From Hydractinia symbiolongicarpus (taxonomy: Eukaryota), in NCBI RefSeq assembly GCF_029227915.1, contig NC_079887.1:16096214-16160213 (forward strand): 64,000 bases of DNA, given 5' to 3'. Shown piece by piece: positions 3,788 to 64,000 of the stretch. Numbering within the stretch: position 1 is the first letter of the stretch; every line of letters starts with the position of its first letter. The position numbers were made by a program, and so were the translations under genes. The notes under the pieces are model-generated. The model was given only the letters and a program-made list of their open reading frames with translations, searched no databases and had not been told where the DNA came from.

Positions 3788-5197
3788 CTGATTTGTGTTC
3801 AATTGTGTTACATTTTCTTTCTCGTTATCAAGTTGATTCTTATTTATTTTAAACTTTGTGTCATGTAACATAGTGCTTGAAGGTAATGGGGGTGGAGGCG
3901 GTGGTGGCGCGGTGGGTGGTATCGATAGTGAATTGCCACCGTGATTAAGCGAAGGCGGAATAGGAAACATTGTTTCATGTTGCTCAACACACGACTGTCT
4001 TTTCTTGACATAATGTTGGTTTTGATCAGCTGCCACTTGTCTCCATTTTCTTTCGGCAACCCTTCGTGAAAATCTTCGCACAGATCCTTTGGCCTCTAAA
4101 AAGTAACGTAAAACAAAACACAAGAAGAAGAAGAAGAAGAAGAAGAAGAAGAAGAAGAAGAAGAAGAAGAAGAAGAAGAAGAAGAAGAAGAAGAAGAAGA
4201 AGAAGAAGAAGAAGAAGAAGAAGAAGAAGAAGAAGAAGAAGAAGAAGAAGAAGAAGAAGAAGAAGAAGAAGAAGAAGAAGAAGAAGAAGAAGAAGAAGAA
4301 GAAGAAGAAGAAGAAGAAGAAGAAGAAGAAGAAGAAGAAGAAGAAGAAGAAGAAGAAGAAGAAGAAGAAGAAGAAGAAGAAGAAGAAGAAGAAGAAGAAG
4401 AAGAAGAAGAAGAAGAAGAAGAAGAAGAAGAAGAAGAAGAAGAAGAAGAAGAAGAAGAAGAAGAAGAAGAAGAAGAAGAAGAAGAAGAAGAAGAAGAAGA
4501 AGAAGAAGAAGAAGAAGAAGAAGAAGAAGAAGAAGAAAAATAGCTGGAGTTGATAAACCTGTACTAGGTTAAATGTATTGTTCAAGAAAATAGTTTTTAA
4601 GATTAATTTTAAATACGTTAAAAGATTGCAAGTTTCGAATTTGAACAGGAAGACTGTTCCAGAGAACTGAACCAGAAACCCAAAAATTACGAAAAAGGGT
4701 GGGCGCTTAATAAAGAACTGGATCAAAAACAAAAATTACGAAAAAGGGTTAGCGCCTAATCCAGAATTTAAGGTAGTGTCATCCGATGAACTAACAACAC
4801 AGCAAATTTATAAACAATGATTTATTTATATATAAAAATATATATTACCTTGACCATAATCATATGACTTAATAACATTTTCTTTAAATTCTAAAAACTT
4901 TTCCTTAGCCTCCCTAGATGTTAAGGCACCCAGCTTTTCTTGACTATACAACCATGACATCATTTGAAACTTAAGAAATCCAAAAAAACCATTATTATTT
5001 TCAACCTCATCCTTTTTTCGTTTCGCAACAACGTCGTAAAATGCGGTCGGATTATCCTCCAAGTAATCCAACAATTCTTTTAATGCATTTTCTGTTTGAA
5101 CGCTACTTTGTCTCTCAAACTCCAGCGTGGAAATACGAGAACAATATGACTTGGGAGCAGGGGAAGGTGCATCAAATTCTCCATACACACCAGCCAT
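3788..5197 (-). CDS. Uncharacterised spliced protein-coding gene: exon 1 4849-5197 (ATG at 5197-5195) and exon 2 3788-4095; further 3' exon(s) not located
   Basis: The exon-1 ORF is MAGVYGEFDAPSPAPKSYCSRISTLEFERQ...KENVIKSYDYGQ and ends at a good donor (CAAG|gtaatat). Exon 2 starts at a strong acceptor (tttacgttactttttag|AGGCC) and continues in the same reading frame (phase 1, G|AG = Glu). It encodes EAKGSVRRFSRRVAERKWRQVAADQNQHYVKKRQ...PPTAPPPPPPPLPSS...NTNQ and ends at donor AATCAG|gtatat. The phase agreement across the intron supports a real gene. I recognise no family for it. Confidence 0.5.
4122..4537. repeat. (AAG)n / (CTT)n microsatellite, ~139 uninterrupted units (416 bp)
   Basis: This is a perfect AAG trinucleotide run. 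It produces the poly-R, poly-K, poly-E and poly-F artefact ORFs in the six-frame track. It lies inside the 4096-4848 intron of the minus-strand gene and ends 26 nt from the 3' splice site. Confidence 0.98.
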
Positions 5198-11370: not shown

Positions 11371-13074
11371 AATTTTATGGATTGTGCTATTTTTTTATTT
11401 TAACAACGTTAATGATCATTACCTAAAAGAATATTCTGTCACTGTCAAAACAATTATGATGCTTTTACCACAAAATTGGAAAGCTCAGAAACTGTTGTCA
11501 TACATTTGACACTTTTCTGACTTTAAAAGGGTTTCAACATAATGGAAATTATTCTTAGCTATAAATAAACAGTCGAGGAATAAATAAATAACAGAGAAAA
11601 CATAATTCGAAATAAACAGAATGGATTTTTATAAAAGGGTTAATACAAAGATTTTCAGTAAAACATCTGAGGAAAAGCAAAAAAGAAAAAAAGTTGCTGC
11701 ACTGCACACCACGTACGAAGTAATGAGATGTTTTGAAAAACTGCGCCGTCTGGAATTAACCGTAGTTTTATTTAGAGCAAAGTTGACTTTACAAAAACCT
11801 TTTTTGTAGAATATGAATGTAATTTGCAAAAAAAAAAGTTTATACACTTAACATAACGCTTAGCTAATGTTCTCAGATTTTTATATCTTTTTTGAATAAA
11901 AGCAGTAGATGTGTGCAGCCAATATACTAACAGTTACAACTTTGTTATCACTTAAAAGCACGTGACGAACGTAGTGTTGGCTAAGACTACATGTACGGCT
12001 ACATCGACTTACAATCTGCAAGGATAAATAATATGTAGGCAAACTTTAGCAAAATTCGCTAAGTTTAAACCTAGCGAAATACATTTAGGAGACTCTAATT
12101 TTTCCTTTTTGCATTATTAGAAAACTCCGCCTAGATCAATTATTATATTTATTCTAGTTAGAATTCTAGTGTAGGGGATATTATTTAACATAAAAAAGAT
12201 TCTCTCTCTCTTAAAAAAAAATAAATGTGAATCTCACACAAAATTCCAAAGATCGCGTACCTGAAAGTTTCGCGTGCCAACGCGGGCAATAACTTCATTT
12301 AGCACCGGGCTAAGTCGTACCGACATACAACGTACAACATAATTGCACCCTTCATACTTTATCGACATAAAAAGTCCAACAGACGTTCATTCACAGTACT
12401 CCAACCAAATGGACCCGACAGATAAACCCTCATTGTCCGACATCCTCTCTATCGTTCCATAGCAAATTCATATTTTTTTGTCAATAATCCATAACCAACG
12501 TAATATCGCATAATACTGCATAATATCTTTATAATAGTCTCTATCGTTACATAAAGTACATATTTTTTCTGTCAATCGGCCATAATCAACGTAATATGCC
12601 ACAATATTTCGCATGACTGCCATTTACGGAAAGCTGTTTTTATAAAGTAGACAAAGTTTGAGGTTGGATACACATCCATACACAAACAGAAACGATATTT
12701 CGCTCAACTAGCTTTTTGCAAAAAGACATATTAACGGCCCTATTGCAGGCTAAACAAAGAGACGTTTTTGTACAATATATTGAACGGGCGGTAGTGTTCT
12801 ATGCCCTTCGATAACCAATAGAAAAGATATTTTGGATAATACGCCCCTCCCTCCCCCCCCCGCGAAATTACATATCACAAGTCCTAAAAAATGTCAATCT
12901 GAGGCAAGGCATTATACTATACATTTACCAGGCTTTACTGTTATGTACTTATCCGTACAGCAGTAGAAACAAGTATCCTCCCTGAAAATGACGTATCAAA
13001 AGTCCTAAAGCAGGCCAATCAATCCAAAGACAAGTGTTTTTTTTTCAGACTGTGCAAAAGTGTAAATTCTATCT

Positions 13075-14075
13075 CTTTTTTTTATGGAGTTATATGTGGG
13101 ACAATATTCGTGTATAGTTTTCGTCGCGTCGTAATGTTTTTCGTCGCGTCGTATCTTTCTTCGTGGCGTGGTTTTCTTCGCAGCGTAATGCTTTTCGTCG
13201 TGGCGTATTACTCATGTTAGTGTGATCTCATGTTTCGTCGTGTCGTATGTCACGTCGTGGGGTATTTCACTTTGAGGCGAAATAGTTATGCTTTTTTTAC
13301 ACGGAATTACTAATTTCGTGAAGCTTTTACACAATATATTTCACTTTCTTTCTAGTGGCTTTGGGTAAAGCTAGCTATTATTTTTGTCATTTTCTTTTAA
13401 TAAACGATACATTCTTAGCTATATTACTTAGCTACCTAGCTAGCTATACATTTTAAGCATGCAACACTGTATAATCTATTATCTATTTTGCAGTTTAAAT
13501 GGATTCTAATAAAAATATCAAAAATCAAGTAAACTAATTACATAAACATAAATTATTACATAAAACTTACACAACACATAATATTTCTTCATAATCACAA
13601 ATGTAAACTAACTTAAAAATAGAATATAATTTTTAGCACTAAACTAAAGGTTTTGTTTATTTTACTGCACTTTATTCATGTGACTTGGATTTCTTGTAAG
13701 CGCTGCACGAATTTAGTAATTTCGTGTTAAAAAAGCATGAAAATTTTCGCTACAAAGTAAAATACGCCACAAAGTAAAATACGCTACAAAGTAAAATACG
13801 CCACAAAGTAAAATACGCCGCGAAGTGAAGTACGCTACGAAGTGAAATACGCCGTGAAGTAAAATACACCACGAAGTGAAATACGCCGCAAAGTGAAATA
13901 CGCCGCGACGAACACAAATACGACTCGACGAAAGGTTAACCACCCCACAAAGAAAGATACGACGCGACAAAAACCACACCACGAAGAAAGATACGACACG
14001 ACGAAAAGCATTTACGACGCGACGAAAACCGTACACGAATATTGTCCCATATATAACTCCATATTTTTTCGGGGC
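13075..14075. mobile_element. Nested foldback / MITE-like element (~1 kb) with terminal inverted repeats and subterminal 17-20-bp tandem repeats
   Basis: The termini 13085 ggagttatatgtgggacaatattcgtgta and 14035 tacacgaatattgtcccatatataactcc are perfect inverted repeats. The left arm carries tandem ttcgtcgcgtcgtaatgttt units (13100-13270). The right arm carries the complementary acaaagtaaaatacgcc units (13740-13990). Confidence 0.6.
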
Positions 14076-15949
14076 AGTATTTCAATAGTATAGCTTGATT
14101 AGTTCTTAAACCAAATAAATCTCTTAGATGCATAAAAATTCAAATATTCCAATGATATTTGTCCGACTCAAGAAGCTGCTGCCGTAGAGAAGCTATAGCA
14201 CATTAAGGATTAGAGCCGTTTACGATGAAATTATTCCATTGTTGTTTGAAGTAAAAACAGGTCATAACTTTTTATCCGCAAAGGCTCTTAGGCTGAAATT
14301 CTGTAGAAGGCAAGTCAGTAATATAGCGTATCATTAGGAAAAAGAAAAAATACTGTTTTAACAGATATGGAAGAATTCCAAATTAAAAGTCAAAACTTAG
14401 GTGAAAAGAAAAATGACAATATTTTCGAGCAAGATGTAAAATTTTGCAAATTCTTATATTTACATGGAACAAGGATGTTCCAAAAAGGCATAAGTATAAA
14501 ATTTATCTCATTTAAAGAGTCTCCGTGGATTTGATATTCCATTGAAGTTAGGATCAGAGTAGAAAAGTTGAAAATAGTTCTAAATAATGTAATCATTATT
14601 GGCTCCATCCTCGTGAGAAACTGAAACTCCTATTTTGTGTATTGCTTCCAAAGTCACAAAATATCCTTTCAAACAAGAAATTTTGGGAAAAAGAGCGTTC
14701 TGGGAGGAACTATTCCAGTTTTTTGCTAAGAACTACGTCTTTGAAAATGGAATGCGACATGATTATAAGCTTATTATATTATATAATGATGATAAGGTAT
14801 TGATGGGAAAGGCTTGAATAAGTTTTTCAGTGATTTAGATTGATAATGAGCTGTTCGGTAAGACGATATTCCACCGATTTTCTTGATTTTTAAATTCTGA
14901 TAACCTCTTCCATTTTAGAGCATATGGATAGAAAAATCACTATCCATCAACGTGTATCGGACTTCCAACTAAAACACTGAAGGGGAGTAACATCAATTAA
15001 AGAAGCCTTCTAGAACGAATTATTCTTCTCTTAAAGAGGAGAATAATTTTTTAAACCATCGATCAGAAAACATCTATTGAAATTAGATACCGTTGTAAGA
15101 TTACAACTGAGGTTGCTAATTTTTTATTGGAATTCTTTCAATCCTTGAACCCTCTTAGTTATGGAATTCATTTCTTGGTGGCGTTTTTAAAGTGTCTCAA
15201 AGACGTAATTTGGCCAAAAATGACATACTGAGACATCTTCATACAGCAAAATAAAAACTCAGGACAGAAGTTGTCAATATAACGAAGTTGTGGAATTAGT
15301 GTTAATGGAATTAGTCTTTTCACAGTGCTCCTTAAACTGCTTTAGTTTATTTTGTTCCTATTATAAAGTTTCATAAATATGTTGTATTTAGTTTGACTTA
15401 GTTTAAAAAGGAACTGATCATGTTACGAAAAATCTGTCTCCTATTCTGGGTGTAATTTGGACAACACCGTGCGGAATATCTAATCCATGCTTGCTCTTTA
15501 AATTATTTTTTCAGTAATCCATTTTAAATTCATGATTATTCTACAAATAATTACAGCTTCCGAGGGTTGTTGCGCAGTTTAAAGTTGTCTTCGTAGAGGC
15601 TTTTTGTTTAAAATAAAACGTCATATTTCAATGGAATAATCCATTAAAAAGAACACCTTGAATACAAACTTGCAGTAGATAAAATTGCAATTATCGCGAT
15701 ATTGGAATATCTAATCCAAGGAAGCTCTTGAAAATTTGGAGTACATATTCCCCATTTTTTTAAACATCAAGTGGGAAAATTTCAATTAGAAATTTTAAAA
15801 ACTAAGTTTTAACATCAATCTCTGTAAATCATTAAAGGCTTGCTTCCCACAACTTGTCTCAAAATACTTGTATATAGAATTAGTATTTAAGAAACCTTTT
15901 TTGCCGGATTAGAGAGTACTAAGGTAAAACAAACAAGAGCAACTAAGCT

Positions 15950-17700
15950 AATTAGTGTAAAGACTTTTTACTAATTAGCTTTCGCGGAGGGTATTTTGTC
16001 AAAATATATTTTCTATTAGTGGATGGATTTGTATCCTACCTCAATGCTTGTCTATTCTATAGTGCAACGTGTTCCCTCAGATTGGTTTCTAGTGTAAAGC
16101 CTTCGCATTGATTGGTCTGCTTAAGGACTGTTGATGCGTCATTTTCAAGGAGGGTATTTCTCCATAAAATTGTCTCTATTTGTGTATGGATGTGTTTCCA
16201 GCATAAGTGTTTGTGCAGGGTACAGTATAAAATTTTCTCTTTGATTGGTCTTTTAAAATATCTCAGATTTTATTTTGCGCATCCCTCAACTTCTAAAAGT
16301 GTTACCTCAAATGACGTATGGATGTGTCTCACATTTACAGACTTCCTTTTAATTTTTCTGCTAAGATTTCGACCTTTACTTTCATCCAGGTTGTTTTTAG
16401 CCATGTATTGTGGAATATCCCATACTGGTTTAGTGAGGCTTTATTTGAATAGATCTATTAGGTCATTTTTTAAATAGTGTTATCCAAGCTATCACTCCAA
16501 AATGTCGTCTCTATTGCATGTGCATAGGTATAAAACAATACCGCCTTTTTAGTACATACTATACATCTTTCCTCAAATCTAACAGCTTTAAGACTTTTAC
16601 TGTGTCATTTGCGAGGGGGTATTTGTCCAGAATATGGTTTCTGTTGGTGCATAGATGTGCACCCAACCTCACTGAATGTTTAATTTAAGGTGTAAGTCTT
16701 CTCTTGATTGGCGTGCTTTAGGACTTTTATATATCTTTTCGCGGAAGGGTATTCGTCCAAAGTTTAGTGTCTATTTGTGAATGGATTGTTATCCAACATA
16801 ACTGATGTTGGATAACATTGGTTTGTTTTATAGTGAAAAGTCTTTCCTTCGATTGGTCTGCTTTGGGACTTTTGATGTGTCATTTTCTTGGAGGGTATTT
16901 AGCCCAATTATCATTTCTATTGGTGTATGGATGTGTATCCAATCCCAATATTTGTTCATTACAGTGTAAAGTCTACATATTGATTAGTCTGCTTTAGAAC
17001 TTTCATTTTTTCATATCGCGGTAAGGTATTTGTCAAAAATATAGTGTCTCTTTGTGTATTGACGTGTATCCAACATCAGTGTTTGTTTAGTTTAAAGTAT
17101 AAAGTCTTCTCTTGATTGGCGTGCCTCCTGCGAAAGGACATATTAAAAGTCCAAGTCCAATTTGTCCAAGACATAGTGTCTATTTGTGTATGGATTGTTA
17201 TCCAACATCAGTGTTGGTTTGTTTTATAGTGAAAAGTCTTTCCTTCGATTGGTCTGCTTTGGGACTTTTGATGTGTCATTTTCTTGGAGGGTATTAAGCC
17301 CAATTATCATTTCTATTGGTGTATGTATGTGTATCCAATCTCAATATTTGTTCATTACAGTGTAAAGTCTACATATTGATTAGTCTGTTTTAGAACTTTC
17401 ATTTTTTTATATCGCGGTAAGGTACTTGTCCATAATATAGTGTCTCGTTGTGTACTGACATGTATCCAACATCAGTGTTTGTTTAGTTTAAAGTATAAAG
17501 TCTTCTCTTGATTGGCGTGCTTGAGGACTTTTAATGTAGGACTTTTGATGTATCATTTCGCAGAAGAGAATTTTGCCATAATATCATTTCTATTGGTAAA
17601 TGGATGTATACACAACCTCAATTGTTGTTTTTTTCAATATGTGATCACTTTGCATTAATTGGTCTACTTTAGAAATTTTGATACGTCATTTCCAGGGAGA
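15950..17700. repeat. Tandem satellite with ~140-bp unit (~12 units), including a young ~410-bp higher-order repeat (16690-17100 versus 17100-17520)
   Basis: The unit is gattggtctgctttaggacttttgatgtgtcattttc.ggagggtatt...tctattggtgtatggatgtgtatccaa...tagtgtaaagtct. 16862-17100 and 17271-17520 are near-identical. Confidence 0.85.
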
Positions 17701-18451
17701 ACACTTGTTTCTACTGCGGAATAATGTGGCATATTACGTTGGTTATAGCCTATCTACAAAAAAATGCATTTGTTATGTAGCGATAGAGAGTATTATAAGG
17801 GTAACATGCAGTATTATGCGATATTACGTTGTTATGGCCATCGACAGAAAATTTATGTACTTTTTTTGAATTATAAAGGTATTATGCAGTATTATGCAGT
17901 ATTATGCGATATTACGTTGGTTATGGATTATTGACAGAAAAAATATGTATTTGTTATGTAGCGACAGAGAGTATTATGAAGGTATTATGCAGTATTATGC
18001 GATATTACGTTGGTATGACCATCGACAGAAAAAATATGTATTTGTTATATAGAGAGGATGTCGGATAATGCGGTTTCATTTGTCGGGTCCATTTGGTTGG
18101 AGAAGTATGACTGAACGTCTGTCGGCTTTTTATGTCGATAAAGTATGAAGGTTGTTAGTTATGTTGTACGTCGTGTGTCGGGACCACTTAGCCCGGTGCT
18201 AAATGAAGTCGTTGCCCTAAACGGAGTCGTAGCCCTAACGCGGCCACTGGTTATCTCATGCGACCTAATATGTAGTAACAACCAAGCTTTTATAAACAAA
18301 ATAAGGAAAAGGCAGCTTTGGGTTGATGGACAGAAAATTTTAAAGTGACTCGCTACAAAATGGAAAGATCACAAGACAAATCAGGATTCTTGGATGCAAA
18401 TTCCAGTAAGGCTTTTTTTGGTTTATTAGTTTAAATTAATCAATGAACTTC

Positions 18452-18689: not shown

Positions 18690-19420
18690 CTCACGATCGT
18701 TTCAAAAATAATTGTTTCAATTTGTATAATATTTTATTTGAAACGATCTCTATACGATTTTGAAACGAATTTAAAAAAAAATTGCAAAAAAATTGTTTTA
18801 AATTTGTTTCAATTTGTTACAAAATTGTTTCAAATCGCTTTGTTGAATTGAAGATTGTTTCGTAATTGATTCGTAATCGTTTCCTAATAGTTTCGCATTC
18901 GTTTCTCAATCATTTCAAAAAAATTAAAGTTAATTCGTTTCAACACTTCGTTAAATTGGTTTAAAATCGCTTCAAAATCACTTCAAAATCGCTTCTAATT
19001 TAACACATGTTTATCACACATCGCCGATTTCTAAATAAATTTACTATCAAATTTATATAAATGTGTGCATTTTTATTCAAAAAAATACCAAATTGAATCA
19101 TAGAAAGCGAAAAAGATCACCGTAGATTGTTTAAGAATCATGACAACGGGATTGTAGAAAGCGAAAAGATCACCATAGATCATATAGTTTCACGTAATAA
19201 ATTTGTCACGTTTTAATTGTTATTTAATTAATTTGGGGAAACAATTCGTTTCAGAACTTGTTTGGTAATTCTTTTCAAATTTTGTTTCTAGATTCGCTTT
19301 TAGTTTCGAAATCATTTCCAATCGTTTCCCATTCGCTTCCACTTTGTATCATTTTGTAGCTTAACAGATATAATAAACACAATCGTTTCTAAATCATTTC
19401 AAATTGCTTCATGATAGGTT
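18690..19420. repeat. Cryptic low-complexity repeat built from degenerate gtttcaaa(a/t)cg(c/a)tt units
   Basis: There are dozens of degenerate copies of units such as cgtttcaaaat, cgcttcaaaatc and gtttcaatttgtt, in two blocks: 18690-19000 and 19230-19420. Confidence 0.5.
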
Positions 19421-20001: not shown

Positions 20002-20526
20002 TCAAAGAATTATTACTTCCTGCTTGTCAGTACAAGAAAGACATGGCTTTGTATTTTCTTGTCTGCAGTACTGGTGGTCTCCCTGACTTAACTGATCAGA
20101 TGTGCCGGGTGACAAGGTACCCTTTTTGGCCTTTTTAGGACGTGGCTGATACCGCTGTCGAATGGGTTTTCTTCGAGGAACAGGCTCTTTAAAATCATAC
20201 ACAAGTTTTAATGATGGATACAGATTACTGCAGGTTGGTTCTGCATCCTCAAAGTGCTCACTACAAACCCTGTCACTTGGATGTGGACTCCACAAAGATT
20301 TATCATCTTTTTCTCTCTTAACTCTCCGTACCCATTCCAAATGATTAGCTAAATAACGATTGGTACTGGGAAAACAAAACAGGCGATATGCTGGTGGTTG
20401 ACAGGAGGCACAAGTTTCTTTAGTTTGAGGCTGACTATTATGCTCTGTGCAAATACTTTTCCTCCACTTTTCCAATTTCCTTGTGTTATTCATACACCCA
20501 ACAACAGCACAATTAGCAGGACCCAT
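20002..20526 (-). CDS. THAP-domain protein ORF (C2CH zinc finger), probably transposon-derived
   Basis: Within ORF 20002-20619, starting from the internal Met, the protein is MGPANCAVVGCMNNTRKL...RLFCFPS...ANHLEWVRRVKREKDD...WSPHPSDRVCSEHFE. This matches the THAP signature C-x2-C ... FP ... W ... C-x2-H-F. The C-terminal part is basic and low-complexity. Confidence 0.5.
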   Translation of the reverse strand: MGPANCAVVGCMNNTRKLEKWRKSICTEHNSQPQTKETCASCQPPAYRLFCFPSTNRYLANHLEWVRRVKREKDDKSLWSPHPSDRVCSEHFEDAEPTCSNLYPSLKLVYDFKEPVPRRKPIRQRYQPRPKKAKKGTLSPGTSDQLSQGDHQYCRQENTKPCLSCTDKQEVIIL

Positions 20527-20912
20527 CTCGATAAGACTAGAAAGCCAAACAAATTCTCTCACTACTTTACTCACAACACTGCCAGAAACTGTAACTGCCA
20601 GAGCGGTTTGTTTACCCAAAACTCTGCCCAGCTCTCCAAATAAAAATGGTAGCCATTAGGTTGAATTGGTGTATAAATATAGATGAAGCTGTGCGCATTA
20701 AGGCAAAGAAGGGTCGTTGTCTTCCCACATTCCACCTGCCCAATGTTCTGTAACTTCACTCCCTGCAGATAATATTAAGCGTTCAGAGTATGTGAATTTG
20801 GAACTAATACTCCCACCATCATTAAATTCGTTGTATGTCCCAGATGACGAGGGTGAGTATGATCTCAATATAAGAACAGCAGACTGCAACCCACAACTCT
20901 CACTTAGTAGTA

Positions 20913-22714
20913 ATGTTTTGGGTAGGCCTAAGATTAAGGACTTCGTCTCTTGGTGCAAGTGAGAAAGCTGGTCACCCATCAAATTCTTTTGTCACCCAGT
21001 TTGCCAACCAATACGTCTTCTCCGCTGTGTGTGCCTTTGACAAACCGCATAGGCTGCAGTTAGCTAATGATCCTTTGCGACGATGGGACCAGATTGACGA
21101 CTTGCTCGTTACTTATAATTTGGGAGAGGCTTTCTTGCTAACTAAATCGTATGCCTCTTCCACCTCTGCCTTGACATTAACTGCTTACGGCAGCAGGAAC
21201 ATTTTGCAACAAATTTTACTAGGTTCCCCCAAAGGTTCAGAATGCTTTCCAGTACTTTCCCGGCAGCGGCTTCTATCAGGTAAAATTTTCATCAAATCCC
21301 AGAGTGTGCTGGCAGTTTAATAAAGGCCTGTATTGTTCCAACAGATGTCCCTTTCCACACAAGTGCACCTATTGTTCCAGAAATCATCCAGCACACCGTT
21401 GCTTATTTAGGCCCTTTTTTCCAATTAAGTCCTCTGATTGCACTTCTGTAATTGTTTTATTGTTGTGCAAATTATTACTTTTGCATCCCAATCGGATCTT
21501 AGTTAATTTTATCCTTATGGGTTCAAACTAGGGTGTCAAACTGGATAACTTTTGACATCTACAACTAATAACAAATCCTCTATGAAATATTCGAGAAAAG
21601 TTGATAAGACTATTTTAAAAGAGTTGCCCCTCCTCTGATTACCCTCCTCTTCCAAATTTTTATTGCTCCCCATTGGGTGCAGCTCCTAAAAAGATGATAC
21701 AATTCAGGTAATTTTAGACCTTTCATCAACACAGTGATTTTTAGTTAACGATGACATCTCTAAGGAATCTTATTCGGTTACATACTCATCATTTGAGAAT
21801 GCCATTGACATGGTACGTGAACTTGGCTGGCACTGCTTTTAAGCAAAACAGATGTCAAACATGCTTTCCAGTTGTGTCTGGTTCACCCAGATGACTGGCA
21901 TCTACTTGGCTTCAAATGACAGGAAAGATAATTTTTCGATGTTATTCCTTTCAGTGGGAGGTCATCACCATTTAATCACTTGCCAGACTTAGTTGACTGG
22001 GTTCTTTATTACCTGGCTGCCATCTGGCAGCTGTTTCATTATCTAGATGACTATATTACAGGTGATCCGCTAAAAGCAGCATGCCAGGATATTGTTTATT
22101 TAATTCAAAAGGTCCTTTAGCCCTAGAGAAAGATTAATGCTCCATCCTGCGTCCTTACTTATATAGGTATTGAAATTAATACCACTCAATTTATTATCCA
22201 TCTATCTAAGAAAAATTTTTATGCTGTTTTGTCCCTGTTGAGAGTGTGAAAAGGAAAACTGCAGGAAAAAGGAGCAACTGTCACTCATAGGATTGTTGTC
22301 TTTTGCATGCAAAGTCCTAAATGTGATTGTATTTTCTGCATATAGGTTAATTTACCTTTCTACCACAGTAAGTAGACTTCACCATCACATTACCATTATA
22401 TCAGAATCCAGCAAGGACATTGAGTTGTGGTTGATTTTCTACTAAGTTGGAACAGGATGGCAGTCATCCAAATAAAAATTACGTCAGAAACTATAAATAT
22501 ATTTACGGACGCTTCCATGAGTGGTTTAGGCAGTTTTTATGATGGAAAATGGTTTTCCATTTCTTTTCACAACACCAATAATTACAGCATTGCCTTGCTC
22601 GAATTACTTGCTGTTGTTTTAGCAGTACATATGTGGGGTGAGAAGTGGTCTAATACCATTTATACAGAACAGGTCATCATTTATACAGACAACAAGCTCA
22701 TAGTTCACATATGA
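20913..22714 (+). mobile_element. Decayed retroelement remnant: Cys-rich knuckle, RT-like block and RNase H
   Basis: A zinc-knuckle-like segment is CSNRCPFPHKCTYCSRNHPAHRC (21304-21531). An RT-like block LPNFYCSPLGAAPKKDDTIQVILDLS...AKQMSNMLSSCVWFTQMTGIYLASNDRK is consistent with an RT domain; the class is not assigned. An RNase H block with TDAS reads IFTDASMSGLGSFYDGKWFSISF...ELLAVVLAVHMWGEKW. There are multiple stops. Confidence 0.6.
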
Positions 22715-45851: not shown

Positions 45852-48800
45852 CGAGAGAGTTTTGCCTTTCGTTTCAATTGGCAGCAAGAGAGAAGCGATG
45901 ACACAAGCAACCAGAAGTGCGGCGTAAACACCCACCACCAAATAAAACGAGTGATGAATTAAAACCTAGTGACGAAGTTTATAACCTTGATTGTCAACTT
46001 GAGATTGATGCAAAGAATTCATTTGCAACTTTCTTGATTTTATTCTTAGTTTTGTCAAAAAGCAATATTTATAACAAAACTCAGAATTAAAACAAAAAAA
46101 ATAAACCGAAAGCAATGCTTCAGAATTAATACACAGCAAAATATGAAATAAAACCGCACCTGTGCAACAAAGGGGGTTGCCATTGCACCCACCCTGGCAA
46201 ACATACTACAAGCACCCAAACCAACAGCACGTACGTTCGTTGGTAACACCTAAGAAAGAAAACAAGTAATTTAACTGCCGATAACTCGAACCTCTTTCGA
46301 TTACTCGAATTTCCAGCAACTCAGTCCGACTATTTAAGCGGTCTCCTGGGCTAAAATACTTGTGATAACTTGATCTCCAAAGATAAAATGCAGAAAAATC
46401 CTGTGCAAGTTATTGTTTTTTAAAAAAATAAATTACTTAATTAATAGAGATGTAATCTTTCCTGCCCTAATAGACTTCGAAGACATAAGAGCTTATTTGT
46501 AATGATTGTACACAAGGTATTGTTTCTGTTTCACAGTCAACGTAAAAAAGAAGAAAAAGGAAATAAAGTCAAGTAAAAGAATTCAAATTCCATAAAACAA
46601 AGCATATTGGTGTCCTTTTGGAGTGCGTAGGGTTTAAAGTAGCGAATTTTGAAAAAATTTGTTTTTTTACATGGGGGTCTTTTTAACACCGGTCTTTAAT
46701 GGCGGAAGGGCGATTTTTGAAATCGGCGCAATAAGGGCAAGCGTAAGTGGGCCCGGTGGTAAATTTGGACCGGCGTTATAAGGGTCGATAAGGTGGCATA
46801 CTGTAATTAAACACTAGCCGAATATTTCAGGTTTTCAGCTAGTGTTTTACGACAGCGCATTTTATGCTGACCTTTGATGGGACACAAAAAAATACAAGAA
46901 AAAATGAAGCTCTTACTTCAGGTGTATATACATATGCAGCTTGAAAACTACCAGTAACAAAGCCGCGAACAGCAAATATGAAAATCACCGACATTGTTCT
47001 AAAGCAAAAATAAAAACAAATATAATTACTAGTACAATCATAATACAATCCTCGAAATTCGTTTGGTGTTGTTAAGTTTCGTACAGATTCATTAAAAATA
47101 TTCAACAAATTCACAATTTTCGAAATAATTAAAGCTAGCCGCTAGTCTGTGAAAAATTCCACGTGAGATCTGCCGTGTCTATATCTCCCACATCGCTATT
47201 TCGCGCATCCTTGCCCTTTGTTAAGATAAGTAATGAAGTTTACTTGGAAGGGGATTAATTACTATGAATATTGATGCGATTATAATGGCGTTTTCGATTA
47301 CAAAACCCCTGTTTTTAATTGGCTCACAGACAAACAAAAAGACAGCGAATATTATAATATAGTCGTTAACTCGTGGAAAAGTCAACGGGTTCGCCCGTCA
47401 GCACGTTATTTACTCTGCATGGTACCGAGAATGAAGTTTCGGCGCAGCCATTTTGAACAGAATAGGTCTATTATTATAGAGATTCAGGACCAAATTTGCA
47501 TGAAACTTTCTTCTATTAAAGAAGATTAAGTTTTGGGGTTTGCACGTGACTGATTGCAAATATGACTTCTTGGGTCTGCACGTGACTGATTGCAAATATA
47601 ACTGCTTACCGTCCCGTGCATATAGCTAGTAACATGAAAGAGATGGAAGCTAATCCAAACAACACAGCAAGCGTTTTCTTCCTGCCGATCCATTCGATTA
47701 AAATGATGGCGAGCAATAAACCTGGAAACAAACATAAAATTTTCTACCAATGTGCTACTGTATTTACTTTCTGAGAAAAATTTTATTGAACGTCCGCCTT
47801 ATTTTGAAAATAGAGGGGGTGGCGCTCACTTAAAGAGAGAGAAGACGTTCAAAGGGAGGGGGCGGTTGGGGTGCTTATTTTGCTTATGTAAAAAAAATAG
47901 TATACCTGGAAACTCTGCGATACTGGTCAACATAAAATCGACGTAATCTTTATTTGATAATTCTTTGCACGTTGTTATTGTATTTGTGTCATCTAAAAAT
48001 ATGGATGGATGAATAAATGTACGAAATAAAAATGAAATAAATGAATAAAATAATTGGTGAATAAATGGAATGAATGAATAAATGAAACAATAATCTAAAA
48101 TATGTGTGGGGATGGATGAATGAAAGAATGAATGAATAAAGGAATGAAAGAATGAATGAAAGAATGAATGAATAAAGGAATAAATAAAAGAATGAATAAA
48201 AGAATAAATAAAAGAATGAATAAAAGAATGAATAAAGAATAAATAAAAGAATGAATAAAAGAATGAATAAAAGAATAAATAAAAGAATGAATAAAAGAAT
48301 AAATAAAAGAATGAATAAAAAAATAAATAAAAGAATGAATAAAAGAATGAATAAAAGAATGAATAAAAGAATGAAAAAAAGAATAAATAAAAGAATGAAT
48401 AAAAGAATGAATGAAAGAATAAATAAAAGAATGAATAAAAGAATAAATAAAAGAATGAATAAAAAAATAAATAAAAGAATGAATAAAAGAATAAATAAAA
48501 GAATGAATAAAAAAATAAATAAAAGAATGAATAAAAGAATGAATAAAAGAATGAATAAAAGAATGAATAAAAGAATAAATAAAAGAATGAATAAAAGAAT
48601 GAATAAAAGAATAAATAAAAGAATGAATAAAAGAATAAATAAAAGAATGAATAAAAGAATAAATAAAAGAATGAATAAAGAATGAATAAAGAATGAATAA
48701 AAGAATGAATAAAAGAATAAATAAAAGAATGAATAAAAGAATAAATAAAAGAATGAATAAAAGAATAAATAAAAGAATGAATAAAAAAATGAATAAAAGA

Positions 48801-51800
48801 ATAAATAAAAGAATGAATAAAAGAATAAATAAAAGAATGAATAAAAGAATAAATAAAAGAATGAATAAAGAATGAATAAAAGAATGAATAAAAGAATGAA
48901 TTAAAGAATAAATAAAAGAATGAATAAAAGAATAAATAAAAGAATGAATAAAAGAATAAATAAAAGAATGAATAAAAAAATGAATAAAAGAATAAATAAA
49001 AGAATGAATAAAAGAATGAATAAAAGAATAAATAAAAGAATGAATAAAAGAATAAATAAAAGAATGAATAAAAGAATAAATAAAAGAATGAATAAAGAAC
49101 GAATAAAAGAATGAATAAAAGAATGAATTAAAGAATGAATAAAAGAATGAATAAAGGAATGAATAAAAGAATGAATAAAAGAATGAATAAAAGAATAAAT
49201 AAAAGAATAAATAAAAGAATAAATAAAAGAATGAATAAAAGAATGAATTAAAGAATAAATAAAAGAATGAATAAAAGAATGAATAAAAGAATGAATAAAA
49301 GAATGAATAAAAGAATAAATAAAAGAATGGATAAAAGAATAAATAAAAGAATGAATAAAAGAATGAATAAAAGAATGAATAAAAGAATGAATAAAAGAAT
49401 TAATAAAAGAATAAATAAAAGAATGAATAAAAGAATGAATAAAGAATGAATAAAAGAATGAATAAAAGAATGAATAAAAGAATAAATAAAAGAATGAATA
49501 AAAGAATAAATAAAAGAATGAATAAAAGAATGAATAAAAGAATGAATAAAAGAATGAATAAAAGAATAAATAAAAGAATGGATAAAAGAATAAATAAAAG
49601 AATGAATAAAAGAATGAATAAAAGAATAAATAAAAGAATGAATAAAAGAATGAATAAAAGAATAAATAAAAGAATGAATAAAAGAATAAATAAAAGAATG
49701 AATAAAAGAATAAATAAAAGAATGAATAAAGAATGAATAAAAGAATGAATAAAAGAATGAATTAAAGAATGAATAAAAGAATGAATAAAGGAATGAATAA
49801 AAGAATGAATAAAAGAATGAATAAAAGAATAAATAAAAGAATAAATAAAAGAATAAATAAAAGAATGAATAAAAGAATGAATTAAAGAATAAATAAAAGA
49901 ATGAATAAAAGAATGAATAAAAGAATGAATAAAAGAATGAATAAAAGAATAAATAAAAGAATGGATAAAAGAATAAATAAAAGAATGAATAAAAGAATGA
50001 ATAAAAGAATGAATAAAGGAATGAATAAAAGAATGAATAAAAGAATGAATAAAAGAATAAATAAAAGAATAAATAAAAGAATAAATAAAAGAATGAATAA
50101 AAGAATGAATAAAAGAATAAATAAAAGAATAAATAAAAGAATGAATAAAAGAATAAATAAAAGAATGAATAAAAGAATAAATAAAGGAATGAATAAAAGA
50201 ATAAATAAAAAAATGAATAAAAAAATAAATAAAAGAATGAATAAAGAATAAATAAAAGAATGAATAAAAGAATGAATAAAGGAATGAATAAAAGAATGAA
50301 TAAAAGAATGAATAAAAGAATAAATAAAAGAATAAATAAAAGAATAAATAAAAGAATGAATAAAAGAATGAATAAAAGAATAAATAAAAGAATGAATAAA
50401 AGAATGAATAAAAGAATGAATAAAAGAATGAATAAAAGAATGAATAAAAGAATGAATAAAAGAATAAATAAAAGAATGAATAAAAGAATGAATTAAAGAA
50501 TAAATAAAAGAATGAATAAAAGAATGAATAAAAGAATGAATAAAAGAATGAATAAAAGAATAAATAAAAGAATGAATAAAAAAATAAATAAAAGAATGAA
50601 TAAAAGAATAAATAAAAGAATGAATAAAAGAATAAATAAAAGAATGAATAAAAGAATGAATAAAAGAATGAATAAAAGAATGAATAAAAGAATGAATGAA
50701 TAATAAACGAATAAACAAACACGACGAACTCACTTTTATTGGGATGACATCCGTTTAAACCGGTTTGAAATATTTCAGTAGTCAGTAACACAATACCATA
50801 ATACGCAAACGCCGAAGTAAACCTGAGAAAATGAATTGAAGAACATCTGTAGGAAATTATATAACGTGATGTAGTCAAAGGTTGTTAAAAAACATGTTAA
50901 AAAATAATCAGACATTACATTGTAATTAAGCTGCTGATAAAAATTATTTTAATAACTTTAATGTGACTCTTCTCAGTCGACAGGAGCGATCTTACTCATT
51001 TCCTGAATGTAGCAAATTTGTTTGCGTCCGAATCCTGGTATATTACATTTAAAGTCACGTAGTTAGGCGGTGGTGCCGTAATTAGGAACATAAAGCGTGC
51101 CAAAGTGTCATTTTAAGAAAAATATTTAAGGTGTTCATTACCAGTTCCCTTGTACCTTACGAAGTAGAAAATTGATGATCGCGGAATTAACACGAATGAC
51201 TAAAACTACTTATAAAAAAGAAATTGATAAACGTGATTCAGCTGAAGTACTTACTATAAACATTAAAATATATTTATCTTTATTCTGAGAAAGGGTTCAT
51301 TAACAACCAGTTTCTCTTGCTTTCTTCAAGACGTTTACAATATCAGCTGCCCTGCAGCCTACCCTAATCACATTAAGTGAGTGAACCGTGTCAGGACGAT
51401 ACTAATTTTTTTTTCGTTAATCAAAGAAGAGCGAAATACGCGTATTTGAGCTTTGTATTATGACTGCTAGAAAAAAATATTTTTTTAAACTTTAATTACA
51501 GGTTTTAAATTAACTAGTAACTTTTTATATTTAAGGACCTGATACACTTGTATAATATTACTGAAATATACTTTATACTAGTATATAGTTGCAACTACTT
51601 GTCGCCCTTGTTTACCGTGATATGACAGTTGTTCTTTCAAATCTGATACATATGCACCCCTTATTTTCCAAAGCCATGATTAGCCCCAACACCAACCTTG
51701 ACCCCAGGACTGGTTCTCTTTTTATAAACCCTGGGCTCGAGGTTGCACCAACACGCGAAGTGCACAATGAAAGGATACTCAGTGCGTTTTATCTGATCAC

Positions 51801-58450: not shown

Positions 58451-59556
58451 AAGTGTAAATGTTGGTGTACATCAGGGTTCTGTACTTAGTCCTTTGTTGT
58501 TTGTTCTAGTCTTAGAAGCGCTGTCGATGGAGTTCAGAACAGATTGTCCATAGGAGTTATTGTATGCAGATGATTTGGTTCTCATAGCAGAGTCGATGGA
58601 AGAATTAGTTGAAAAGTTTGAGAAGTGGAAGAAAGGACTAGAAGAGAAAGGGCTAAAGGTAAACACAGCAAAGTCTAAAGTCATGATTAGTAGCATTGCA
58701 GCCAAGTGTGACCTTGTAGTTGGAAAGTGGCCTTGTGGAGTTTGCAGGAAAGGGGTTGGTAGTAACTCAATTTTTTGTCAGACTTGCAAGCATTGGATAC
58801 ATAAGAAGTGCAGTAGTATTAGTGGAAGGTTAAGAGCTGACATTCAGTTTGTATGCAAGCGTTGCAAAGGTGAGATTATAGAGAATGAAGTATTTCCAGC
58901 TGTAATGATGTACAACAGTGGCTCCTTAGAGATAGTTGAGAACTTCTGTTACTTAGGTGATATGTTGGGCAGTGAAGGGGGTGTTGGAAGAAGTGTTACT
59001 TGCAGGATAGGTTCTGCTTGGAGAAAGTTCAGAGAGTTACTTCCTTTGATGACTAGCAGAGTCCTGTCAATTGAGGTAAAAGGTAGGTTGTATGAGGCCT
59101 GTGTAAGAAGTGTTACGTTGTACGGTAGTGAGACATGGGCAGTGAAGCAGGAAGATCTTGGCCGTTTAGAAAGGAATGATATGAGAATGGTTATAGGTGG
59201 ATGTGTAATGCCAGTCTGAGAGACAGAAAGAGTTCAGATGAGCTAAGAAGCAGGCTAAGTCTCCGTAGAATTAAAGATGTTATCCAGATAAGAAGATTGA
59301 ATTGGCTGGGGCACTTGAAAAGAATGGAGGAGGATAATCAGGTAAGGAAGTGTAGAGACTTGATAGTTCCTGGGGCAAAGCCCAGAGGCAGACCGAGAAA
59401 GAATTGGCAGGAGGTTATAAGGACAGACTTGATACAGAGGAAGTTGAGTTTAGATCTAACATAGATCAGATTGAAAGAGGGTCATTAATATACCCCGTCC
59501 AACCCATGCTAGCATGGAAAACCGACGTTAAGCCGAGAATGATGATGATGAGAATT
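58451..59556 (+). mobile_element. 5'-truncated LINE copy 1: RT C-terminal motifs, PHD-type zinc finger and basic tail, with an (ATG)n 3' end
   Basis: Motifs present are VHQGSVLSPLLFVLVLEALSMEFRTDCPWELLYADDLVLIAES, the PHD-like CGVCRKGVGSNSIFCQTCKHWIHKKCSSISG...CKRC, then ...RLNWLGHLKRMEEDNQVRKCRDLIVPGAKPRGRPRKNWQEVIRTD. There is a frameshift near 59200. The 3' end is atgatgatgatgatg at 59541-59556. Confidence 0.85.
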
Positions 59557-62500: not shown

Positions 62501-62696
62501 TTTGCACAATTGAAAATTGTGAAAAAAATTCTGTTTGTCGGTGAAAATAATGTGGTATTGATTCTTGAAATGTTACTAAATTTTTAATGCATTGAACATG
62601 AAAAAAATATCAGAGGACAGCGAAAAACGTAATCAAAATTACGTAAACCAACCAACCAACCAAAATTAAAACTTTGAGGTGAAAGACATTTATATC

Positions 62697-64000
62697 ATCA
62701 TCATCATCATTCTCGGCTAAACGTCCGTTTTCCATGCTAGCATGGGTTGGACGGGGTATATTAATGACCCTCTTCCAATCTGATCTAGACTGTGTTAGAT
62801 CTAAACTCAACTTCCTCTGTATCAAGTCTGTCCTTATAACCTCCTGCCAATTCTTTCTCGGTCTGTCTCTGGGCTTTGCCCCAGGAACTATCAAGTCTCT
62901 ACACTTCCTTACCTGATTATCCTCCTCCATTCTTTTTAAGTGCCCCAGCCAATTCAATCTTCTTATCTGGATAACATCTTTAATTCTACGGAGACTTAGC
63001 CTGCTTCTTAGCTCATCTGAACTCTTTCTGTCTCTCAGACTGGCGTTACACATCCACCTAACCATTCTCATATCATTCCTTTCTAAACGGTCAAGATCTT
63101 CCTGCTTCACTGCCCATGTCTCACTACTGTACAACATAACACTTCTTACACAGGCCTCATACAACCTACCTTTTACCTCAATTGACAGGACTCTGCTAGT
63201 CAAGAAAGGAAGTAACTCTCTGAACTTTTTCCAAGCAGAACCTATCCTGCAAGTAACACTTCTTCCAACACCCCCTTCACTGCCCAACATATCACCTAAG
63301 TAACAGAAGTTCTCAACTATCTCTAACGAGCCACTGTTGTACATCATTAAAGCTGGAAATACTTCATTCTCTATAATCTCACCTTTGCACCACTTGCATA
63401 CAAACTGAATGTCAGCTCTTAACCTTCCACTAATATTACTGCACTTCTTATGTACCTAATGCTTGCAAGTCTGACAAAAAATTGAGTTACTACCACCCCT
63501 TTCCTGCAAACTCCACAAGGCCACTTTCCAACTACAAGGTCACACTTGGCTGCAATGCTACTAATCATGACTTAAAACTTTGCTGTGTTTACCTTTAGCC
63601 CTTTCTCTTCTAGTCCTTTCTTTCCACTTCTCAAACTTTTCAACTAATTCTTCCATCGACTCTGCTATGAGAACCAAATCATCTGCATACAATAACTCCC
63701 ATGGACAACCTGTTCTGAACTCCATCGACAGCGCTTCTAAGACTAGAACAAACTACAAAGGACTAAGTACAGAACCCTGATGTACACCAACATTTACACT
63801 AAATTCATCACTAAGTGAATCGTTAATCTGACACAACTTCTAGCATTGCTGTACATAGACTGTACCATCGTAACTAGCTATCATCCACACCTAATTTTCT
63901 CATAACCCACCAAATAACTTTACGTGGCACTCTATCAAAAGCTTTCTCTAAATCTACAAAGGCAAAATAGAGATTCTTTCTCTTTCCTAAATACTTTTCC
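62697..64000 (-). mobile_element. LINE copy 2, inverted relative to copy 1; it reaches further 5' into the RT domain and runs off the window end
   Basis: Across 62610-63780 it is ~95% identical to copy 1 and carries the same PHD finger and GRPRKNW tail. Its ORF 62610-63347 is intact through the region where copy 1 is frameshifted. Upstream on the minus strand it reads ...DEFSVNVGVHQGSVLSPLLF. The (CAT)n 3' end is at 62697-62712. Confidence 0.85.

Follow-up and report, generated by a model that had tools for sequence, protein, structure and literature searches.

A 6-kb structure with satellite-bearing inverted arms in Hydractinia symbiolongicarpus, most likely the relic of an old foldback-type transposon

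The structure found at positions 12284-18217 of the 64-kb stretch of Hydractinia symbiolongicarpus DNA analysed here (the window) is a real feature of this genome and, judged from its sequence, is most likely the relic of an old foldback-type transposon without coding capacity. We give a probability of about one half to the more specific proposal of one old element, structurally of the foldback type, that moved as a non-autonomous cut-and-paste DNA transposon. The locus today is a single decayed copy without coding capacity, set in an intergenic region rich in TEs, with ordinary repeat biology and no signs of present activity. A first-pass annotation of this DNA had proposed a foldback-like element or a non-autonomous transposon with long TIRs. 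All of the components that it listed are present in the sequence, although several of its figures had to be corrected; the arms, the tandem domains and the non-coding middle fit such an element, and from this layout we infer that it was a transposon. The positions of the domains are given in Table 1.

Table 1. Domains and associated features of the 6-kb structure (positions are those of the window)
Feature	Position	Strand	Description
Candidate left target-site duplication	12278..12285		CAACGCGG; its last 2 nt are also the first 2 of the inverted repeat
Left terminal (flanking) domain	12284..12452	+	Non-repeated, starts GGGCAATAACTTCATTTAGCACCGGGCTAAGT; 87.6% identity with 18049-18217 in reverse complement
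Left 91-bp subrepeat domain	12436..12620	-	Two units, variants a and b
Left satellite domain	12641..13037	-	About 3.3 diverged ~131-bp monomers, in the orientation opposite to that of the right array
Nested foldback MITE	13083..14063		981 bp; inverted arms of 17-21-bp tandem repeats
Middle domain	14064..15961		Unique, non-coding, 1.9 kb
Right satellite domain	15962..17720	+	1.76 kb; 11 recognisable ~131-bp monomers
Right 91-bp subrepeat domain	17715..18052	+	3.6 units, a and b alternating
Right terminal (flanking) domain	18049..18217	-	Inverted counterpart of the left terminal domain
Tandem copy (18 bp) of the outermost right terminus	18218..18235		TAAACGGAGTCGTAGCCC; from TRF and reading of the sequence; left end without it
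Candidate right target-site duplication	18236..18243		TAACGCGG; valid only when 18235 is the true right end

The outer parts of the two arms aligned colinearly and in inverted orientation in BLASTN (12284-12606 against 18217-17900, 84.7% identity over 327 columns, E 5e-97; E 3e-95 in the self-comparison of the whole window), and it is in this 327-column alignment that the long terminal inverted repeats expected of a foldback element are seen. Arms had earlier been placed at 12260-12720 and 17640-18240 with an identity of about 85-90%; the inverted similarity is indeed extended, but it starts sharply at 12284 and 18217, and past the arm ends inverted symmetry is confined to chance matches at the level of microsatellites. 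Self-alignment, the check suggested beforehand, was passed: the similarity also takes in the outermost 169 bp of each arm, which are non-repeated and 87.6% identical, and is not limited to the subrepeats. Both the order of the domains and the junctions between them are identical in the two arms, which measure about 750 bp on the left and 2260 bp on the right when their satellite domains are included. An assembly hairpin artefact is ruled out by the 12-15% difference between the arms and by their different repeat copy numbers.

The tandem repeats within the arms are unequal in number, as is expected of foldback elements, with 2 copies of a 91-bp subrepeat on the left against 3.6 on the right, and 3.3 monomers of a ~131-bp satellite against about 11. 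The subrepeats had been described as units of about 100 bp and do occur in both arms, but their period is 91 bp. Two variants of the unit alternate to give a dimer of 181-182 bp, 3.6 copies are found at 17731-18052 in the right arm, and the junction between the subrepeats and the terminal domain is common to both arms. A 140-bp satellite of 1.7 kb had likewise been reported; the array is present, at 1.76 kb, but its period is about 131 bp, with a range of 129-146, and it includes a degenerate stretch of 340 bp (16252-16591). What had been taken for a reversed fragment of this satellite in the left arm is reversed, but it is more than a fragment, as about 3.3 monomers could be recognised with an nhmmer monomer profile (E 3.9e-15, 8.8e-10, 4.8e-6 and 0.05). 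The third of the left monomers is 86% identical to the outermost partial unit on the right, and a deletion of 12 nt is common to both. The earlier view that the satellite is part of the inverted structure and larger on one side is thereby upheld. Expansion has been one-sided and recent: a higher-order repeat of 396 bp, made up of three monomers, exists in two copies that are 96% identical (97, 92 and 88% for the monomer pairs), and this duplication is young.

The nested foldback MITE of about 1 kb that had been noted inside the structure was confirmed, and is a separate, later insertion. It has TA..TA termini with TTTTTT on both flanks, which is low-complexity sequence, and its single-stranded DNA folds at -200 kcal/mol (z = -23). 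The middle domain is non-coding, as foldback elements would lead one to expect, since no Pfam match was obtained with its four longest ORFs and no protein homolog with 1024 aa of concatenated stop-to-stop translations; it also has no similarity to the rest of the window. A protein search for spurious ORFs with 1224 aa of stop-to-stop translations from the arms and satellite gave 0 matches, and neither a transposase remnant nor an autonomous partner was found in the analysis of the window. The interior had been called AT-rich, and at 31-33% GC it is, but this is the same as the window average and is not distinguishing. An Rfam scan of 11-20 kb at E <= 0.1 gave no structured RNA matches, and an origin from a structured RNA, a tRNA or a SINE was rejected.

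The outer termini of the structure are GGGCAA...TTGCCC. A 23-mer is present in exact form at both ends and is absent from the rest of the window, and a mini-palindrome with a 5-bp stem, TTAGC..GCTAA, is found in both termini. At the right end TRF identified a tandem repeat of period 18 (18199-18238, 2.2 copies), of which the left end has 1 copy. The motif CGACA occurs four times on the plus strand within the terminal 177 bp on the left and five times, mirrored on the minus strand, in the right terminal domain, against a background of 0.41 per kb per strand; the motif was selected after the fact, and the arms do not count as two independent samples. These CGACA/CCGACA repeats are candidate transposase binding sites.

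The termini fit none of the superfamily signatures against which they were compared. For Helitrons and Helentrons the criteria were 5'-TC and 3'-CTRR ends, a subterminal hairpin on the 3' side, an insertion site of A/T or T/T and the absence of long TIRs; this class, including HSymSHlR, is ruled out by long inverted arms that end in GGGC/GCCC and by flanking bases that are C on the left and T on the right, and the mini-palindrome of the two termini is all that there is of a hairpin. IS3EU and GingerRoot elements have TA..TA termini (PMC10045372), and the group, including HSymIS3EUlR, is ruled out for the outer element with its GGGCAA...TTGCCC ends, whereas the nested MITE does have TA..TA; when the 6-bp TSD of IS3EU/GingerRoot is considered, the outer element offers CAACGC against TAACGC (5/6). 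PIF/Harbinger, for which a 3-bp TWA TSD flanking termini of the GGG/CCC type was the criterion, is ruled out by a left flank of CGC, the right flank being TAA. A DIRS-like ITR origin is ruled out by the position of the RNase H fragment, outside the structure at 22.4 kb, and by the absence of a third arm copy, and a tie to the THAP ORF (20005-20655) by its distance of 1.8 kb beyond the right end.

A target-site duplication is suggested by an exact 7-mer, AACGCGG, that is common to the left candidate and to 18237-18243. As a direct repeat YAACGCGG (7/8), present if the right end is placed at 18235, this is suggestive and not significant, the probability that two windows of this size have 7 nt or more in exact agreement by chance being P = 0.059. 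In FB, Tetris and Mutator-like elements the TSD has a constant length of 8-10 bp. BLASTN of 12240-18260 against the whole 64-kb window returned no match outside the locus. The terminal 23-mer had 0 exact matches in JGI metagenome contigs, and the 30 matches to a degenerate satellite core in a metagenome scan were single and due to chance, with similarity that did not extend further in any of them. LINE matches assign the window to Hydractinia. In ENA contig ERZ25068966, which comes from a related animal, a LINE corresponds to that of the window (81%) and no sequence of the element is present.

Two independent or rearranged copies of a satellite-carrying repeat could also lie head to head at this locus, one running inward from 12284 on the plus strand and the other inward from 18217 on the minus strand, in which case their orientation would be due to chance and the middle would be host DNA. 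The window contains a LINE-RT inverted pair (58452-59551 against 63800-62698, 97% over 1.1 kb), and therefore inverted TE pairs occur here. The insignificance of the TSD around the whole structure is in keeping with two copies, as is the reported dominance of TE-derived tandem-repeat families in Hydractinia (PMC11934779). However, there is no solo copy of an arm in the 64 kb and the arms do not have Helitron-type ends. Because the two arms have no sequence in common at their inner edges, at least one copy would need to be truncated inside its satellite, and a single element is favoured over two complete copies; we regard the head-to-head arrangement as rather unlikely.

It is also unlikely, in our estimation, that the structure is a non-mobile local inverted duplication of a segment with unique DNA, the 91-bp repeats and the border of a satellite array that diverged later, having arisen for example via template switching or fold-back repair. 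Such an event would agree with a structure that is single-copy within the 64-kb window and has no significant TSD, with arms that have diverged by 12-15% and not been homogenised, and with the LINE-RT pair as a second inverted duplication-like pair in the window. It agrees less well with the strand-mirrored CGACA arrays and the terminal 18-bp duplication, which are typical of transposon ends, or with a whole domain plan that is found in described foldback elements.

A single foldback-type transposon is the reading that we prefer. Each of its arms consists, from the outside in, of a 169-bp unique terminal domain, 91-bp subrepeats in a 182-bp dimer and ~131-bp satellite monomers. The arms flank the 1.9-kb non-coding middle, and a transposase supplied in trans may have mobilised the element by binding the CGACA/CCGACA sites. 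After insertion the tandem domains could have varied in copy number independently of each other, through unequal exchange or replication slippage, with the right arm becoming enlarged and the 396-bp three-monomer duplication perhaps being the latest step. The identity of the arms would have fallen to about 85-88%, and a foldback MITE unrelated to the element would have landed beside the left arm. The first-pass annotation added that the structure belongs to a type that generates rearrangements, which is an extrapolation to this locus from other foldback families. At long imperfect palindromes replication may stall and ectopic recombination may take place.

The literature searched contained no cnidarian foldback-type element described as having satellite-bearing arms. 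Should the structure be confirmed as one of a multi-copy family, it would supply such a case, as well as a concrete locus for studying how the arm repeats of a transposon become satellites. Tandem repeats make up a quarter of Hydractinia DNA (PMC11934779). The families HSymIS3EUlR, HSymSR and HSymSHlR of Hydractinia symbiolongicarpus are derived from TEs and have units of 182, about 150 and 372 bp, respectively (Kon et al. 2025, PMC11934779); they occur at centromeres and subtelomeres, at a distance from genes, in arrays of megabase size, and HSymIS3EUlR and HSymSR together account for about 20% of the genome (PMC11934779). At our locus the periods are 181-182, about 131 and 396 bp, of which only the 182-bp period is a close match in a comparison made by period alone. 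Moreover, in contrast to megabase arrays, the locus is a dispersed structure of 6 kb, and its outer ends do not have the TA..TA of IS3EU. It seems very doubtful that the locus is a dispersed, TE-borne progenitor or sibling of the centromeric and subtelomeric repeats (the 182-bp HSymIS3EUlR and the ~150-bp HSymSR); if it were, it would be a cnidarian counterpart of Tetris, with arm repeats that had seeded chromosome-scale satellites.

Helentron-derived elements of oyster, 'pearl' and the MITEs of clams consist of a mobile framework with a short array of monomers of ~130-170 bp. These elements have one central direct array and ends that are non-inverted or have short TIRs, whereas the satellite of the locus lies in both of its inverted arms, in opposite orientations. 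The FB arms of Drosophila melanogaster are made of short tandem repeats, and they are closer to the nested MITE at 13083-14063 than to the outer element. Galileo TSDs are of 7 bp. Galileo, a member of the P superfamily in Drosophila, and FB share a foldback structure, and their long TIRs are internally repetitive, vary in length and are unequal (PMC3573991). Galileo is associated with a P-type transposase, however, whereas the locus has no transposase and its termini do not fit.

The Drosophila virilis foldback element Tetris has TIRs that are composed of unique flanking, tandem-repeat and inner domains (Dias et al. 2014, PMC4079207). It is non-autonomous with a non-coding middle, the copy number of its TIR-220 repeats varies between arms and alleles, and the TIR repeats expand into satellite-like arrays (PMC4079207). 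Tetris has verified TSDs of 8-10 bp and is present in several copies (PMC4079207), whereas that of the locus is a candidate known from one copy in the window. There is no sequence relation between the two, which come from different phyla, and the periods at the locus are 91 and 131 bp, but the domain plan is the same. In its terminal domain, tandem-repeat domains, non-coding middle and unequal arms the layout of the Hydractinia locus matches that of Tetris, Galileo and FB.

Sensitive self-comparison of 11.5-19 kb bore out the long inverted arms that the first-pass annotation had proposed for the foldback-like element (12284-18217, or to 18235 with a terminal duplicate): 12284-12606 matches 18217-17900 in inverted, colinear order at 84.7% over 327 columns (E 5e-97). 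Local alignment with 85 bp of outside flank per side starts exactly at GGGCAA in both arms, and a relaxed search with 1.3 kb of flank per side gave chance or microsatellite matches only, so that the arm ends are sharp and equivalent. It had been cautioned that the inverted similarity might be limited to the subrepeats. The outer 169 bp (12284-12452 against 18049-18217) are without internal repeats and 87.6% identical, so that the subrepeats do not account for the similarity. The terminal 23-mer, CTTCATTTAGCACCGGGCTAAGT, is exact in both arms, is absent elsewhere in the window even at three mismatches, and was obtained in 0 of 100 shuffles.

Inwards from its end, each arm comprises a terminal domain, subrepeats and a satellite. 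The first-pass observation is confirmed with corrected values, namely arm ends at 12284 and 18217, a subrepeat of 91 bp and a satellite of ~131 bp. In the 169-bp terminal domain the pentamer CGACA (mostly CCGACA), a motif picked after inspection, is found four times on the plus strand at the left and five times on the minus strand at the right, when the window background of 0.41 per kb per strand predicts ~0.07. Such strand-mirrored arrays have the expected look of subterminal transposase-binding sites, and may putatively be regarded as such. An 18-bp tandem duplicate (18218-18235) is present at the extreme right end and not at the left. An invariant core, TATTACGTTG, is common to all six 91-bp units; two unit variants alternate, giving a dimer periodicity of 181-182 bp, and in both arms the last unit runs into the terminal domain at the identical point (…AGAGAGGATGTCGGA).

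A satellite profile built from five ~131-bp monomers had no significant match in the window outside the two arrays, and 340 bp (16252-16591) are degenerate satellite. The right array holds a recently duplicated 396-bp unit of three monomers (300 nt at 96%): monomer pairs 5/8, 6/9 and 4/7 are 97, 92 and 88% identical, neighbours only ~65%. Left and right monomers share 55-70% identity, with the exception of the third left monomer, which is 86% identical to the outermost right partial unit and has a 12-nt deletion in common with it. The larger satellite on one side would be most easily accounted for by unequal exchange or slippage once the arms had formed, and the 396-bp duplication shows that the right side was still undergoing such expansion in the recent past. 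A 37-nt palindrome (15945-15981, 86%) sits at the inner border of the right array, where the first ~18 nt of the first monomer follow their own reverse complement.

Coordinates of features within and around the element
Feature	Position	Strand	Remarks
LINE debris (ORFs)	9.7-11.4 kb		left of element
Left 91-bp subrepeats			2 units
Left satellite array	12641-13037	minus	3.3 monomers (profile)
Nested MITE	13083-14063		separate element; inverted arms of 17-21-bp tandem repeats
Right satellite array	15983-17669	plus	11 monomers (profile)
Right 91-bp subrepeats	17731-18052		3.6 units
THAP-domain ORF	20005-20655	minus	isolated; 1.8 kb right of element; Pfam 23.5 bits, slightly lower than the cut-off of 23.9
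RNase H fragment, RT-type	22424-22711	plus	right of THAP ORF
LINE-type RT ORF, second inverted repeat	58560-59219	plus	
LINE-type RT ORF, second inverted repeat	62610-63347	minus	

The element is most likely a foldback-type non-autonomous DNA transposon (probability about 0.5). Such transposons share its layout, in which the arms are unequal, the flanking domain is unique, the copy number of the tandem-repeat domains varies and the middle is non-coding; three of five features of the foldback structural class were found. The middle domain (14064-15961) is unique, gave no matches in a Pfam search, and its translations (1024 aa) found no homolog. No part of the element recurs elsewhere in the window, exact-pattern scans of metagenome contigs returned nothing or chance matches, and a protein-level search aimed at spurious ORFs on other copies was negative. 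In an ENA contig (ERZ25068966, ctg476234_2x_l, 36.6% GC; positions 3836-4671) the LINE family of the window is found at 80-81% nucleotide identity, so that a related animal genome is present in that assembly; similarity was confined to the LINE and did not include the element. Immediately outside the aligned arms, the flanks differ (…CAACGC at the left, TAAACG… at the right). When the 18-bp terminal duplicate is counted in the element they become CAACGCGG and TAACGCGG, a 7/8 match and candidate TSD that is suggestive rather than evidence; an exact 7-mer is shared by 5.9% of random pairs of windows of that size. The foldback interpretation is supported in part: the architecture fits it, mobility is putative, and on present evidence the element belongs, as a decayed and non-coding example, to a structural type of transposon that is already known.

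Such arms might also be produced by two copies of a satellite-carrying element that arose independently and lie in inverted orientation, and the situation is realistic since the window has another inverted TE pair (58452-59551 against 63800-62698; 1.1 kb, 97% identity, ~3.1 kb apart). That pair represents a head-to-head arrangement of two young LINE copies or else an inverted duplication. Its minus-strand RT ORF (245 aa) is 92-96% identical to H. symbiolongicarpus 'uncharacterized protein' entries, which places the DNA in Hydractinia, a colonial hydrozoan, as H. symbiolongicarpus or a near relative. However, the inner arm edges of the element share nothing and a solo arm was not seen in the window; a two-copy origin is unlikely. 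A non-mobile inverted duplication, though compatible with single-copy status and an absent TSD, accounts more poorly for the transposon-like terminal features and is likewise improbable. The arms diverge by 12-15% and differ in repeat number, which excludes an assembly hairpin artefact.

The outer element fits none of IS3EU, Harbinger and Helitron/Helentron. Its ends are GG…CC and not TA…TA as in IS3EU, its left flank is CGC and not the TWA of Harbinger, and for Helitron/Helentron long TIRs are present, TC/CTRR ends are absent and the flanking bases are wrong. The 981-bp foldback MITE nested within it has arms that are 94% complementary over the first 52 nt and 78% over 194 columns, with a single-stranded DNA fold of -200 kcal/mol against -102 +/- 4 in shuffles. 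It has TA…TA termini and TTTTTT flanks on both sides and, with the T-run as a weak TSD, would fit the IS3EU/GingerRoot hallmarks of TA..TA termini and 6-bp TSDs (PMC10045372). IS3EU-like repeats have been reported to make up ~4% of the H. symbiolongicarpus genome. In having arms of short tandem repeats, the MITE resembles classical FB elements.

The window is eukaryotic in character, has ~33% GC and contains microsatellites as well as fragments of retroelements, and the neighbourhood of the element is TE-rich and intergenic; no repeat connects the THAP ORF or the RNase H fragment to it. Blocks of an 11-bp tandem repeat (AAATTGTTTCA-like, 18780-18996) lie 0.5 kb to its right, as does an imperfect 100-nt palindrome (18736-18835), both unrelated in sequence to the arms. 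Further away are a perfect (AAG)n microsatellite (4122-4537; 139 units, 100% matches) and a 2.6-kb array (48118-50697) of the 12-bp unit GAATGAATAAAA, with 216 copies, 92% matches, 15% GC and an extreme skew of both GC and AT; read by eye, the N-terminus of an adjoining ORF suggests a transporter exon.

According to Kon et al. 2025 (PMC11934779), the H. symbiolongicarpus genome is dominated by three families, whose internal tandem units measure 182 bp (IS3EU-like, centromeric), ~150 bp (HSymSR, subtelomeric) and 372 bp (Helitron-like). Compared by period only, the element's 181-182 bp (91-bp dimer), ~131 bp and 396 bp agree closely for the first alone, and a relationship of the arm repeats to these families is very unlikely; if it did exist, the element would be informative about how their arrays arose. 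The closest description found is that of Tetris from Drosophila virilis, which has a flanking domain, a ~220-bp tandem-repeat domain, an inner domain and a non-coding middle, and whose repeats expand into satellite arrays (PMC4079207). Galileo and FB share with the element long, internally repetitive TIRs (PMC3573991).
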